Shown: positions 6,655 to 58,523, counted from the stretch's first letter. The stretch is 64,000 nucleotides of DNA from Planctomycetales bacterium (GCA_005239675.1 SBBO01000044.1:5408-69407), one strand, 5' to 3'. A program made the numbers and translations. Notes: generated by a model not told the origin, from the sequence alone.

Positions 6655-6705
6655 TGCTGAATACCCCCCTCCATTGACCCTGGTTAACTTTTACACGAAT
6701 TCAAA

Positions 6706-7090
6706 TGTCAGCAGGCGCGAATAAGCCGAGTTATGTCCTCTCCTCTATCGAAGAGAGTGATGGTTATTGAACTAACTCCGAAGATCGCTCTCCGGACTCT
6801 TGCGGCCTACCCAGGAATGCTAACGGGACGGATCGCCCCTCTTCCCCTATTCGGCCTTGCTCCATGCAGAGATTGCCTCGTTGCACCCTTTAACAGCGTT
6901 CCATTTTAAGCATTCCCTTTTAGGGAAAGATGAATAGAAAACGCTGTTAAAGTATCGTCACTGTGGCTCTTATCTTTCCAACCATTATAAGGGCTGGAAT
7001 CCTGGATTAACAGGATGCACTATCCTTTGGAGCTCGGACTTTCCTCCGCGCTGTGGTGAAACAGCGTGGCAACCATCTTGGCCTGCTTTT
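6706..7090 (-). ncRNA. rnpB: RNase P RNA, bacterial type A (ends approximate, +/-5 nt)
   Basis: Read on the minus strand:
- P1 is AGCAGGC (7087-7081) paired with GCCUGCU (6716-6710).
- P2 is GAUGGUU paired with AACCAUC.
- P3 is the hairpin CGCUGU-UUCACC-ACAGCG.
- Universal P4/J3-4 element GAGGAAAGUCCGAGCUCC (about 7050-7033).
- GGAGCAAGGCCGAAUAGGGG and CCUGGGUAGGCCGCAAGAGUCCGGA are present.
- 3' P4 strand is ACAUAACUCGGCUUAUUCG.
These elements are nearly identical to the E. coli M1 RNA conserved core. Confidence 0.93.
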
Positions 7091-8263: not shown

Positions 8264-8337
8264 TGGACTCAGTAGGACTTGAACCTACGACCTTCGCCAT
8301 GTGAGGGCGACGCTCTAACCAACTGAGCTATGAGTCC
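8264..8337 (-). tRNA. tRNA-Val (anticodon CAC); no encoded CCA
   Basis: Manual cloverleaf on the minus strand: GGACUCA-UA-GCUC-AGUUGGUUA-GAGC-G-UCGCC-CUCACAU-GGCGA-AGGUC-GUAGG-UUCAAGU-CCUAC-UGAGUCC-A. Confidence 0.9.
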
Positions 8338-8358: not shown

Positions 8359-8417
8359 CCCCCAGCGTATTGATTTACGCACTTTTGCTTTTTAAAAGTG
8401 TGTAAATCAGTTGGGGG
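8359..8417 (-). other. long imperfect hairpin in the spacer between the two tRNA genes
   Basis: cccccagcgtattgatttacgcactttt (8359-8386) pairs with aaaagtgtgtaaatcagttggggg (8394-8417). About 21 bp with one bulge, and a 7-nt loop gcttttt. Confidence 0.6.
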
Positions 8418-8443: not shown

Positions 8444-8517
8444 TGGGCCTACCTGGACTCGAACCAGGGACCAAGTGATTATGAGTCACCTGCTCTGACC
8501 GACTGAGCTATAGGCCC
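8444..8517 (-). tRNA. tRNA with anticodon CAU, probably tRNA-Ile2 (lysidine-modified) rather than elongator or initiator Met
   Basis: Cloverleaf: GGGCCUA-UA-GCUC-AGUCGGUCA-GAGC-A-GGUGA-CUCAUAA-UCACU-UGGUC-CCUGG-UUCGAGU-CCAGG-UAGGCCC-A. It lacks the initiator features (a 1-72 mismatch, three G-C pairs in the anticodon stem). The anticodon arm, variable loop and C4/C5 in the acceptor stem resemble E. coli ileX. Confidence 0.85.
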
Positions 8518-17705: not shown

Positions 17706-17820
17706 GAACTCCTCCTTCTTCACCGCAGTAGTTGCGAAAAAAATCTTGCGCCTTGGTTTATCCGGCACTGTCAACCCTGCGACCTGGCCTTAGGGTTGAT
17801 CCTAAGGAGAGGCGAGTTGA

Positions 17821-18033
17821 TCAAGTGCCCCGGGACAAACCAGCAGAGGTAGCTTGCTTTTTTAGTGTCTTGCCATCTAACCAGGCATCAATTTTTTCTT
17901 TCTTAAAACGCCATTGTCCCACCGTCTTGATGGCGGGAATCTTCCCTTTCTTGAGCCATTCGTAAATGGTTCTTCGCTTTACCCGTAGGTATTTGGCTAC
18001 TTCATCGATTGTTAGTAGTTCATGAAATTGCAT
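17821..18033 (-). CDS. excisionase/MerR-superfamily helix-turn-helix DNA-binding protein
   Basis: About 70 aa. LLTIDEVAKYLRVKRRTIYEWLKKGKIPAIKTVGQWRF is typical of the HTH_17 family. Start is the ATG at 18033 or the TTG at 18057. Confidence 0.7.
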   Translation of the reverse strand: MQFHELLTIDEVAKYLRVKRRTIYEWLKKGKIPAIKTVGQWRFKKEKIDAWLDGKTLKKQATSAGLSRGT

Positions 18034-26013: not shown

Positions 26014-26971
26014 AGCGAATCCGTGGATCGGTCTTGGCAAGGACGATATCAGCCAATAAATTCCCGATAATAAATAGGATGCTGCCCATCATCATGCTCG
26101 CCATGACTAGATACACATCTTTGGAACGTACCGCCGTCAGTAAGAGAGACCCCAATCCGGGCCAGCTGCAGATAATCTCAATTAAGGCCGCGCCGCTTAA
26201 AAGAGACGCAAATTCATAACCCAACAGCGTAATCAATGGATTGATGGCATTGCGCAGCGCATGAGAATAAATAACCCGGTTCTCCGGTAATCCCTTGGCC
26301 CGGGCAGTCATGATATACTGCTGCCCTAAAACCTCCAGCATATTACCGCGCATAATCCGTTGCAAGGCGGCGATGGACCCAATCGATAGGGCTAATGTTG
26401 GGATTGCAAGATGTCTTAAGACATCTTGCATTTTCCCCAACATCGAGAGCCTTTCATGATTAGGACTATACATCCCACCCAAGGGCAAGATGCCTGTTTG
26501 ACTCGCCCAATACAAAAAAATCATCGCCAGAAAAAAACTCGGTAAGGACAAGGCGATATACGAAAAAAACTGGACACTGCGATCGACCCAACGGTTGCGA
26601 TTTAATGCCGCCCCTATTCCTAAAGGAATCGCAATACCCCAAGTCACCAACAGCGCGGCCAACGAAAGGGCGAAGGTATTCCATAGGCGCTCACCGATAA
26701 TCTTATACACCGGCACATGATAATGAAAAGAATACCCCAGCTCAAGACGTAGGAGATTGCACACCCAAGAGACATATTGATGAACAAGCGATTTGTCCAG
26801 CTGATACAACGCCTCGTATCGCGCAATGGTCTCTTGAGAAAATTGTGGGTCCATGCGCATTGTATCCAAATAATTACCTGGGGTCAGGCGCATCAGCACA
26901 AACGTCAATAAGGTTATCCCCAAGAGCATGGGGATAGCCAATAATAACCGTTTTAAGGCATAACGCCCCAT
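26000..26971 (-). CDS. oppB: peptide/nickel-type ABC transporter permease
   Basis: 323 aa. Starts MGRYALKRLLLAIPMLLGITLLTFVLMRLTPG, with the EAA loop TARAKGLPENRVIYSHALRNA. Confidence 0.85.
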   Translation of the reverse strand: MGRYALKRLLLAIPMLLGITLLTFVLMRLTPGNYLDTMRMDPQFSQETIARYEALYQLDKSLVHQYVSWVCNLLRLELGYSFHYHVPVYKIIGERLWNTFALSLAALLVTWGIAIPLGIGAALNRNRWVDRSVQFFSYIALSLPSFFLAMIFLYWASQTGILPLGGMYSPNHERLSMLGKMQDVLRHLAIPTLALSIGSIAALQRIMRGNMLEVLGQQYIMTARAKGLPENRVIYSHALRNAINPLITLLGYEFASLLSGAALIEIICSWPGLGSLLLTAVRSKDVYLVMASMMMGSILFIIGNLLADIVLAKTDPRIRYEKR

Positions 26972-47546: not shown

Positions 47547-47567
47547 ACGCGATCGTCATTTATTTGC

Positions 47568-47708
47568 TAGATATCAACATATCGTGAGTTCTAAATTCGC
47601 AGCACGAAATCCTAGCCGCCGTCCGCTTATGTCCCGCTTCACATCCCCCTTCGGGGATAACCAGGGGCTTCGATATTCGGCTTTCAGATTTAATGTTGCT
47701 GATATCTA
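47568..47708 (-). other. unassigned structured intergenic element directly after the clpC stop
   Basis: Closing inverted repeat tagatatcaacat (47568-47580) pairs with atgttgctgatatcta (47693-47708). An internal 6-bp hairpin atcccc-cttc-ggggat lies at 47643-47658 (loop GAAG on the minus strand). The 73-aa ORF covering it has no protein-like features. Confidence 0.3.
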
Positions 47709-47712
47709 ACAG

Positions 47713-56506: not shown

Positions 56507-57103
56507 CTAACTCATCCACAGCTCAACGATTCCCTTGCGGATCATCATCACGGCAATGGCGGCGAGGAAAAGGGACATAATCTTGGACAGCGCTCTCGAG
56601 CCGGCCTGTCCTAGTGTCTTTATCAAGACATCAGACCAAGTAAATATTACTCCAACTAGACAGATATTGAGCACTGCAGAGATGACCGTGGCGACCAAGC
56701 CGTACTCCTCGATAATGATAAGCGAGGTCGTCAATACAGCGGGACCGACAATCAAAGGCGTTCCTAGCGGGACCGCCCCCAGGTCATCGACAGGCCGGCG
56801 CCACTGTTTGCCCGGTACCAGCAAATCGCTCACGGAAAGACACATAAGAACAAGACCACCGGCAACCATGAAATCACCAACACTGATCCCCATCATGCGG
56901 AACACCCATTTTCCGACAAAAATAAACACAATTGCAACTGACAAGGCCGTTATAACCGATTGAACAATGATCTTCTGTTTTTCCTTTTTCCCTATTCTGT
57001 GGGTCAGCGCCACAAAGACCGGCAACAATCCAATGGGATCCACCGCAATAAAAACCGGTATAAAAGCCAGGAATATTTCGCTTGCCATAACTTTAGAGTC
57101 CAA
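56507..57103 (-). CDS. MarC family (UPF0056) membrane protein
   Basis: 198 aa with 6 TM helices and MarC-type motifs (DPIGLLPVF..., GAVPLGTPLIVGPA). Confidence 0.8.
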   Translation of the reverse strand: MDSKVMASEIFLAFIPVFIAVDPIGLLPVFVALTHRIGKKEKQKIIVQSVITALSVAIVFIFVGKWVFRMMGISVGDFMVAGGLVLMCLSVSDLLVPGKQWRRPVDDLGAVPLGTPLIVGPAVLTTSLIIIEEYGLVATVISAVLNICLVGVIFTWSDVLIKTLGQAGSRALSKIMSLFLAAIAVMMIRKGIVELWMS

Positions 57104-57452
57104 GAATGGTCTTCACCTTAGAGGTCAAGACCTTGTCCCCATCGGCCTTATTGTAATAGTCGGTGGCCCGCGGGATGCGCAATTCTTGCTCCCGTACCGG
57201 AAGAACACTCGTGACCATAATCGGGACAGCAGAGGTGTAATCCGTAATAATCTCGTAGACGCCGCGGCCATCCACTTCAGGCATCTGGATATCCAACAAT
57301 ATAAGATCCAATTCGCGAGAGCTACGCATCAGGATATTCACTACCTCGAGAGCATCGGGGGCCTCGAGCACCTCGAGCTTCATCTTTTCTAAAATCTTAC
57401 GACAACGGCTACGCATCTCCTTGTTATCATCGACAATCAGTATCTTTCCCAT
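57093..57452 (-). CDS. stand-alone response-regulator receiver domain protein (CheY-like)
   Basis: ORF trimmed to the ATG at 57452, which is preceded by AAGGAGA. 119 aa. Has ILIVDDN, the phospho-acceptor LILLDIQMPEVDG, and the conserved T/K positions. No output domain. Overlaps the MarC start by 11 nt. Confidence 0.85.
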   Translation of the reverse strand: MGKILIVDDNKEMRSRCRKILEKMKLEVLEAPDALEVVNILMRSSRELDLILLDIQMPEVDGRGVYEIITDYTSAVPIMVTSVLPVREQELRIPRATDYYNKADGDKVLTSKVKTILGL

Positions 57453-57462
57453 ATTAATCTCC

Positions 57463-57750
57463 TTTCTCACCGCTAGTCGCGGTGAGAAATCCCTGCGCTT
57501 TGATTCATCTCGTACTATCAAATACCCCGAGATGAATTAGCAGGGATAATGCTTACACCCAACCGCTAGTCGCGGTGAGAAATCCCTGCGTTTTGATTCA
57601 TCCTGTACTATTATTCGCCGCAGAGGCGGCGAATAATCCCTGCGCTTTGATTCATCTTGTACTATCAAATACTCAAGATGAATCAGCAGGGATCAAATAC
57701 CCCTGGCTGAATCAGCAGGGATCAAATACTTCAGAATGAATCCTAGGAGG
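57463..57750. repeat. cluster of nested inverted and direct repeats filling the xth / receiver-gene spacer
   Basis: - Forward motif aatccctgcg[c/t]tttgattcatc occurs at 57488, 57581 and 57635.
- Its reverse complement gatgaat[t/c]agcagggat occurs at 57531, 57677 and 57707, with a degenerate copy at 57735.
- Twin long hairpins lie at 57490-57546 and 57637-57692.
- A perfect 12-bp hairpin lies at 57610-57637.
- An 11-bp hairpin lies at 57463-57489.
- A 48-nt block is directly duplicated at 57470 and 57563.
- Tandem units of about 29 nt start at 57664, 57692 and 57721. Confidence 0.9.
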
Positions 57751-57770
57751 CAATGTGATCTGTTTCCACT

Positions 57771-58523
57771 CTATTTTAACTCAATTCCTACCGGACAATG
57801 ATCAGATCCCATGATCTCTTTTAAGATGAATGCGTCTTTAAGGCGCGGACGTAACACCGGTGAGATCAAGAAATAATCAATGCGCCAGCCAATATTCCGT
57901 TTGCGGCAATTCCCCATTGGGCTCCACCAGGTGTAATGCCCCTCGCTCTGTTCAAACACGCGCAACGTATCAATAAAGCCGCTCTCAATGATGCGCTCGA
58001 ACCCCAAACGCTCCTCGGGGGTAAACCCATGATTTTTCTCGTTACCCTTTGGATTGGCGAGATCAAGGGGGGTGTGCGCCACGTTGAGGTCCCCACAAAA
58101 GATAACCGGTTTTTTCTTCTCAATTCTCTTAAGGTAACTAAGCAGATCCACGTCCCACTCCCGGGTGCGGTACGGGAGACGGTCGAGACCACGCTTAGAA
58201 TTGGGCACATAGACGTTCACAAGGAAGAAGTCCTTGTATTCCAGCGTCATAACCCTCCCTTCATTGTCATGCTTGGAAATCCCCATGCCGTTCGTGACAC
58301 AAAGAGGGATGGGTTGACTAAAGACAGCCGTTCCAGAATAACCGACTTTCTGGGCATGGTTCCAATACTGCTGATAACCTGGCAAATTGATCTTTACCGC
58401 CTCACCAGGAGATTTGGTCTCCTGAAGGCACACGATATCTGGCTTAAATTTCTTAATAAAATCGAGCAGGCCTTTATTAAGCGCAGACCTAATCCCGTTA
58501 AGGTTCCACGAAAGAAGCTTCAT
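57771..58523 (-). CDS. xth: exodeoxyribonuclease III
   Basis: ORF trimmed to the ATG at 58523 (MKLLSWNLNGIRS). Motifs CLQETK, GDLNVAHT and SDHCPV. Confidence 0.9.
   Translation of the reverse strand: MKLLSWNLNGIRSALNKGLLDFIKKFKPDIVCLQETKSPGEAVKINLPGYQQYWNHAQKVGYSGTAVFSQPIPLCVTNGMGISKHDNEGRVMTLEYKDFFLVNVYVPNSKRGLDRLPYRTREWDVDLLSYLKRIEKKKPVIFCGDLNVAHTPLDLANPKGNEKNHGFTPEERLGFERIIESGFIDTLRVFEQSEGHYTWWSPMGNCRKRNIGWRIDYFLISPVLRPRLKDAFILKEIMGSDHCPVGIELK

Follow-up and report, generated by a model that had tools for sequence, protein, structure and literature searches.

A repeat-built spacer upstream of a stand-alone receiver gene in an Omnitrophota genome and its likeness to REP-type hairpin repeats

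The question raised by this locus is what kind of element can fill a whole intergenic spacer with repeats. The spacer lies between the stop codon of xth and the start codon of a stand-alone receiver gene (57453-57770, 318 nt, transcribed on the minus strand) in the window, that is, the entire stretch of 64,000 nucleotides analysed here, and nearly all of it is made of repeats. The xth gene (Exo_endo_phos, 57771-58523, minus strand) lies upstream of the cluster and ends with a TAG codon at 57773-57771, while the receiver gene (Response_reg, 57093-57452, minus strand) starts with the ATG at 57452-57450 and is followed by the genes for MarC and DMT_6/DUF486; the named homologues of the receiver protein belong to Candidatus Omnitrophota. 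A preliminary description of the spacer had offered four options, of which a REP/BIME-like or MITE-like cluster fits best, the other three (a duplicated cis-regulatory RNA, a structured non-coding RNA and an array of protein-binding sites) being less supported. With a probability of roughly 0.6, we consider the spacer to be a locally amplified cluster of genome-specific, insertional hairpin repeats of the REP/REPIN/BIME-like kind, a reading that draws on the anatomy of the spacer, its paralogous copies, the absence of the element from orthologous loci, an empty site and compensatory changes in the helices.

The basic unit of the family is a bulged hairpin of 59 nt, often followed by an accessory hairpin of 11-12 bp. 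Its two inverted arms, of about 20 nt each, flank a loop of about 15 nt, and they form an outer helix of 8 bp (ATCCCTGC/GCAGGGAT) and an inner helix of 12 bp (TGATTCATCTYG/CRAGATGAATCA), while the 3' side carries an AAGC bulge of 4 nt; the loop contains GTATTTGATAGTA, and the loop motif that recurs among units is TAGTAC. The main locus holds two complete units together with orphan and degenerate half-units. Read 5' to 3' on the minus strand, the first half of the spacer begins, immediately 3' of the xth stop codon, with a short non-repeated tail (57750-57770), followed by a degenerate 5'-arm unit, U0 (57721-57749; u model, E = 6e-5), an orphan 5'-arm unit of 29 nt, U1 (57692-57720), whose mutations make it self-folding, the complete bulged hairpin M1 (57636-57693, 58 nt, 78.0 bits with the covariance model) and the accessory hairpin hp1 (57610-57637), a perfect 12-bp stem of ATTATTCGCCGC/GCGGCGAATAAT. 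The second half continues with B2 (57581-57611), an orphan 3' arm with half of a loop that can pair only in part with U1, a truncated copy of the accessory hairpin (hp2', 57556-57582), a non-repeated linker (57548-57561), the second complete unit M3 (57489-57547, 59 nt, 78.9 bits), which has a P1 helix of 8 bp, a P2 helix of 12 bp, a 15-nt loop and the 4-nt AAGC bulge on its 3' side, and the accessory hairpin hp2 (57463-57489), an 11-bp stem of the form TTTCTCACCGC-gacta-GCGGTGAGAAA. The GGAG Shine-Dalgarno (SD) sequence of the receiver gene (57459-57462) stands immediately 3' of hp2, and then comes the ATG. Compensation is visible already between these local copies, since M1 and M3 differ at one compensated pair (CTTG/CAAG in M1 versus CTCG/CGAG in M3) and hp1 and hp2 differ at three pairs, all fully compensated.

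All the sequence features listed in the preliminary description lie where it placed them. The 22-mer AATCCCTGCGYTTTGATTCATC has exactly three plus-strand copies (57488, 57581 and 57635) where shuffled sequences predict none, and its partner motif TGAATCAGCAGGGAT is found at 57533 (with one mismatch), 57679 and 57708, the degenerate fourth copy proposed earlier corresponding to the unit at 57721-57749. Both accessory hairpins, the perfect one of 12 bp at 57610-57637 and the one of 11 bp at 57463-57489 that ends against the SD sequence, are present, as are the tandem units with a period of 28-29 nt. The directly duplicated block of 48 nt, placed 93 nt apart, stood as a duplication but not in its size and number: the block has 50 nt and occurs three times, at 57469, 57562 (94% identical) and 57616 (78%), with spacings of 93 and 54 nt. 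Tandem duplication at the locus thus shows three periods: 93, 54 and 28-29 nt. For the first of these, whose block includes the linker, the boundary cuts through the 3' arm of the accessory hairpin hp2'; therefore, the amplification was blind tandem duplication rather than insertion module by module. The three mini-ORFs reported on the transcribed strand exist as they were read and lack an SD sequence, and they were rejected as leader peptides; their ATG is absent from both diverged copies of the element (s2 and s3, described below), so we regard them as by-products of the repeats.

The folding of the spacer is equally unusual. On the transcribed strand, the 318 nt reach a minimum free energy of -137 kcal/mol (z = -9.2 against shuffles), and the opposite strand reaches -131 kcal/mol (z = -9.5), while the 13 other spacers in the window have z values from -4.2 to +1.8. 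The repeats and these folding scores together make the xth-to-receiver spacer exceptional within its own genome neighbourhood. The second most structured spacer of the window is the one upstream of mcsA/mcsB/clpC (47547-47712, z = -4.2), where a 15-bp inverted repeat, TTAGATATCAGCAACAT … ATGTTGATATCTAGCAA, encloses about 130 nt and could be a heat-shock operator or leader. The SD sequence of the receiver gene lies outside the hairpins, 3' of the last one, and its predicted pairing probability is 0.05 when folded with local context (120 nt) and 0.78 with 330 nt. In the minimum-energy fold, a CUCCU at 57745-57749 is predicted to pair with the SD at long range (P of about 0.75), but this anti-SD model was rejected because 38-56% of 32 ordinary genes of the window also reach an SD pairing probability of at least 0.7. 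An RNA thermometer or SD-sequestering leader was discarded likewise, the pairing of the SD being no stronger than for ordinary genes.

Two independent Logan contigs from the same sample, L001 and L002, stop within the repeats, at 57498 and 57716. They cover 46 nt and 56 nt of the spacer, respectively, and so break off at the margins of the cluster; both ends match the window exactly and already include repeat units. The flanks of the cluster are thus confirmed and the internal number of units rests on one assembly. The same breaks show that the repeats fragment short-read assemblies of this genome. The other end of L001 falls inside the tRNA-Met gene, at about 8471.

According to the preliminary description, no similar motif occurs elsewhere in the window. 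This holds for near-exact copies, but profile searches revealed two diverged ones, at 17716-17850 and 8359-8417, both on the transcribed strand of unrelated spacers and with about 46-65% identity, so that the family has three loci within 64 kb. The second copy, s2 (17716-17850, minus strand), occupies the spacer between an HTH_17 gene and an acyl carrier protein gene (ACP) and is significant from sequence alone (nhmmer E = 5e-5; local alignment score of 60.5 against 27.3 +/- 5.0 for shuffles, z = 6.7). Its parts follow the order of the main locus, with a 5' arm, a 3' arm carrying a 4-nt AGGC bulge, an accessory hairpin and an SD sequence, and it contains inner hairpins inserted between the 5' and 3' arms. 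The inner helix of s2, TGGTTTGTCC/GGATAAACCA, differs from that of the main locus by three two-sided changes and one G-U pair, which is valid on the transcribed strand only. The region at 8359-8417 (s3, minus strand), between tRNA-Met and tRNA-Val, is a probable third copy. It has the geometry of the unit (an 8-bp helix, a 12-bp helix, a 15-nt loop and a 4-nt bulge on the 3' side) and scores 21.1 bits with a covariance model built from M1 and M3 only, for which the E-value of about 0.02 is a rough one; the top score of the same model in 85 kb of control DNA was 14.8 bits, and the strong hairpins of the relatives scored 9-13 bits. We call it probable because it was found by the structure-aware search and had no support from the sequence-only search. 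The tRNA genes on its two sides are tRNA-Val(CAC) at 8264-8337 and tRNA-Met(CAT) at 8444-8517, both on the minus strand.

When the four copies are aligned, 91% of the pair cells hold standard pairs and 8 of the 19 pairs show two-sided changes, while controls with the alignment slid out of register were 33-43% paired. As s3 was chosen by a structure-aware tool, the independent weight for maintenance of the helices comes from s2. A covariance model built from the four sequences found no further member in the window and none in 122 kb of the relatives' loci. The units are confined to spacers, except that the HTH_17 ORF has its tail in the 5' arm of s2.

The site of that exception is empty in a relative. 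In the closest available relative for ACP (L024, with 86% identity in ACP), the HTH_17 gene hardly differs as far as ...LDGK, ends as …LDGKH* and is separated by 13 nt from the ACP start codon, whereas the window has about 130 nt extra at this point, which is s2. In the window, the HTH_17 ORF takes its final 15 codons (17821-17865, minus strand; …TLKKQATSAGLSRGT*) from s2; judging from the sequences, the insertion of the repeat appears to have lengthened the HTH_17 coding region by 15 codons. In another relative (L021-L023), the same spacer measures 159 nt and contains three hairpins (z = -6.4) that are unrelated to s2 and have no second occurrence in 20 kb. Depending on the lineage, this spacer is therefore empty, or filled with one hairpin set or with another, which argues for insertional repeat DNA and not for an inherited regulatory RNA. 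The hairpins of L021 (9842-10000) are three consecutive stable ones, of which the third also occurs in L020, whose contig begins inside that hairpin. No relationship was found between the ACP-leader hairpins of L021 and the receiver-leader hairpins of the relatives (all z at most 1.0).

A comparable turnover is observed at the xth-to-receiver spacer itself. The xth-receiver-MarC order is kept in relatives whose receiver is 67-86% identical, but their spacers measure only 48-138 nt and are unrelated in sequence to that of the window, and for this reason the element is not a conserved leader; the comparison with homologous loci proposed in the preliminary description thus found the motif to be absent from them. 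A long mirror hairpin of GTAAGTS heptads is found in L004, L005 and L006, L007, L011 and L012 have GC-rich GAAGCGGGC-type hairpins whose motif copy number is expanded between L007 (87 nt) and L011 (138 nt), and L014-L016, in which the neighbouring genes are different, have a TTAGGGAC hairpin. The spacer of L010 (48 nt) has no significant structure, and L017-L019 show nothing notable, L017 being also without significant structure. L011 has 42 nt of its receiver-leader repeat a second time, with 93% identity, in the neighbouring M48-to-xth spacer, so that a different hairpin motif appears to have spread to at least two spacers in that lineage; the two copies of this GC-rich repeat are located at 2044-2085 and 2900-2941, in the spacers on both sides of xth. 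As for the mirror hairpins, those of L004 (877-960) and L006 (4912-4972) have arms made of tandem GTAAGTS heptads, and in L006 the 5' arm extends over the stop codon of xth and adds 3 codons to this gene.

Taken as a group, the receiver leaders exceed 29 control spacers in structure (median z of -3.6 versus -0.4), with a one-sided Mann-Whitney p of 0.013 that is generous because the lineages are not independent, and p = 0.033 when the window is left out; this excess is, for the same reason, only suggestive. It could mean that structure is selected at this site, and not merely that the site is permissive.

Such selection is the core of another explanation, which we regard as unlikely although it merits serious attention: the spacer would be a cis-acting RNA leader in which hairpins 5' of the receiver SD are required, only the fold matters and the sequence turns over quickly, its role being perhaps to insulate the ribosome-binding site, to stabilise the mRNA from a 5' or intercistronic position, to be cleaved by RNase III or to bind an RNA-binding protein. 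Of seven other lineages, five have hairpin-rich receiver leaders, which fall into four sequence types that are unrelated, and one of these lineages (L014) has different neighbouring genes; this distribution agrees with such a leader, as do the excess of structure over control spacers, hairpins that stop 0-10 nt ahead of the SD, the stronger sense-strand folds and more numerous G-U pairs of L007 and L011, and the compensatory changes inside the family. Two orthologues, L010 and L017, nevertheless manage without significant structure, the family also lies between two tRNA genes and in an ACP leader that is empty in a close relative, the duplication boundaries disregard those of the hairpins, no Rfam family matches, and the lineages behind the p value of 0.013 are not independent. 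A broader version, somewhat more doubtful still, would treat the xth-to-receiver and HTH_17-to-ACP spacers of Omnitrophota as hairpin niches in which stable stem-loops just upstream of the SD are selected while their sequence is replaced by lineage; one family would have been recruited here to both niches and to the tRNA spacer as a shared signal for post-transcriptional control or processing, and it would then be a fast-evolving, structure-only cis-regulatory module and not junk.

Local events might also have built the cluster, and the near identity of its tandem copies (94-100%), the expansion of their own motifs by relatives at the same site (87 nt in L007 versus 138 nt in L011), the lack of sequence-only support for s3 and the failure to find exact copies in the public collections searched all suit a product of slippage or template switching at a palindrome hotspot, with neither mobility nor function and with chance look-alikes at the other two loci. 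We find this rather improbable: s2 is significant from sequence alone and shares the order of arm, bulge, accessory hairpin and SD with the main locus, and s3 lies 6 bits above every hairpin of the control DNA (85 kb), strong ones from relatives among them. The protein-binding option is disfavoured more strongly. Direct and inverted units of 28-29 bp with conserved cores might serve as operators or iteron-like sites, for example for the small HTH_17 protein encoded beside s2, but the arms change together between loci with their complementarity kept and no half-site is constant, a spacing of 28-29 bp does not amount to a whole number of helical turns, the transcribed strand of the spacer has no promoter-like site and the HTH_17-ACP pair occurs in relatives without the element; such an array is thus very improbable. 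Least credible of all is an artefact in which a repeat was mis-joined or mis-counted in this metagenome-assembled contig. The breakage of the same-sample contigs 46 and 56 nt into the spacer, which leaves its interior to one assembly, would allow it, but both contig ends equal the window exactly and contain repeat units, the xth-to-receiver synteny is the same in relatives and the diverged copies stand elsewhere in uninterrupted sequence.

Searches for described classes of elements gave little. At the gathering level, Rfam matched nothing in the window besides RNase P and tRNAs, and a permissive scan returned only noise at E values up to 10. A riboswitch or another described RNA family was therefore set aside, with no Rfam match and with orthologous leaders that are unrelated, and the earlier suggestion of a duplicated cis-regulatory RNA or structured non-coding RNA, understood as a conserved element, is not supported, on the same two grounds, though the more structured receiver leaders of relatives leave it a little room. 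On the transcribed (minus) strand the spacer contains neither a sigma-70-like promoter nor a site resembling an intrinsic terminator; A-rich or mixed sequence follows its hairpins, and an intrinsic terminator in the sense of a GC-rich hairpin with a U tract was rejected. A CRISPR array was rejected too, as the 28-29-nt units abut without spacers and occur in both orientations. An ORF of 54 aa on the plus strand (57575-57739) has no homologues, and a six-frame translation of the spacer, meant to catch spurious ORFs over copies, matched none of 5.8 billion proteins. The exact 21-mer GATGAATCAAARCGCAGGGAT and its variants gave one chance match in GTDB representatives, in a Treponema coding region, two chance matches in JGI metagenomes, also coding, and none in IMG/VR; plasmids searched with the motif by blastn gave none. 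These exact-motif scans are blind to copies as diverged as s2 and s3 and say little about copy number. The preliminary description had named several outcomes that would speak against a locus-specific regulatory element; two of them were obtained, absence from orthologous loci among them, but dozens of copies were not found.

Comparison with known repeat systems clarifies how far the name REP-like can be carried. REPs and REPINs are hairpin-forming inverted doublets in which compensatory changes have been documented, and REPIN clusters contain near-identical units repeated in tandem along with the sequences that flank them, besides singlets that decay (PMC3116915). The repeats described here share with the REP/REPIN elements of Pseudomonas and enterobacteria that they are short, extragenic, imperfect palindromes, that their inverted arms and spacer would form a hairpin in single-stranded DNA or mRNA and show compensatory changes, that near-identical units are arranged in tandem together with flanks (the 50-nt block present three times, with 78-94% identity), and that decaying orphan singlets and lineage-specific sequence are found. 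REPINs go with a cognate RAYT gene, which encodes a Y1 HUH transposase and usually has the repeats on its two sides; in RAYT recognition, a conserved tetranucleotide of the GTAG type marks the 5' end of the palindrome. In contrast, a GTAG-type tetranucleotide is absent from every unit here, and among ten small or unannotated ORFs of the window compared with Pfam, neither a RAYT nor another transposase was detected. REPINs are dispersed in tens to hundreds of copies per genome; for the present family, in an Omnitrophota MAG, the count of three loci refers to the 64 kb of the window. The outlying copies are also far more diverged than typical active REPIN populations, which we count against our reading; because of this unusual divergence and the lack of a GTAG-type motif, we do not assign the family to the REP class that RAYT mobilises.

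The BIMEs of E. coli offer a second parallel, as mosaics of alternating palindromic units with recurring linkers that lie in operons between co-directional genes. Their sequences differ from ours, the array studied here also has direct tandem half-units, and the BIME subclasses are defined by binding of IHF, gyrase and Pol I. Bacterial MITEs such as Correia, RUP and Nezha resemble the family in their non-autonomous insertion, terminal inverted repeats and hairpin fold, and they can extend or create ORF ends, as s2 does with the last 15 codons of HTH_17; the unit described here is short, at about 59 nt, it has no known parent IS and, despite the terminal inverted arms of 8 bp, no target-site duplication was clearly recognised at either junction. 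Structured cis-regulatory leaders (riboswitches, thermometers and SD-sequestering leaders) have in common with the cluster its leader position, its high degree of structure and its contact with the SD, but differ in that the cluster has no Rfam match, no conservation in orthologues and an SD outside the hairpins.

Under the insertional reading that we prefer, we hypothesize that the repeats were inserted into permissive spacers between co-directional genes and that, at the main locus, blind tandem duplication or slippage (93, 54 and 28-29 nt) produced further copies of a unit together with its flanks, leaving two complete hairpins with orphan and degenerate half-units. Mobility, transcription and any effect on the mRNA are what we infer from this picture. 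Because it lies inside the xth-receiver-MarC-DUF486 transcription unit, the cluster is presumably transcribed, and it would appear in the mRNA as five or six stem-loops that fold independently of one another. BIME/REP hairpins located between cistrons stabilise the mRNA upstream of them. The most probable effect of the stem-loops is structural: they would be a barrier or a processing site in the polycistronic mRNA, setting the stability and expression of xth relative to the receiver, and the last hairpin would leave the receiver SD unpaired. The sequence analyses of the cluster gave no indication of ligand sensing.

If this reading is right, REP/REPIN-like hairpin repeats would be exemplified in Candidatus Omnitrophota, where they would extend a coding region by 15 codons and break short-read assemblies at the locus; a search of full-text literature for Omnitrophota, intergenic and hairpin combined found no paper. 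It also carries a warning that the spacer should not be annotated as a riboswitch-like leader. The turnover of hairpins by lineage in two spacers may be the more interesting part, since the same two spacers, holding unrelated hairpin sets or nothing depending on the lineage, provide a route to ask whether such sites are permissive or selected for structure.

Some minor observations were made along the way. In L006, a structured leader (384-626, z = -3.5) upstream of an amino-acid permease gene looks riboswitch-like and ends in a canonical hairpin with a U-tract terminator; therefore, ordinary intrinsic terminators are in use by these bacteria. Nearly all genes of the window are on the minus strand, as is a class A RNase P RNA at 6705-7088, and a perfect palindrome of 26 bp, TGCAAGATGTCTTAAGACATCTTGCA, lies within a coding region at 26405-26430.
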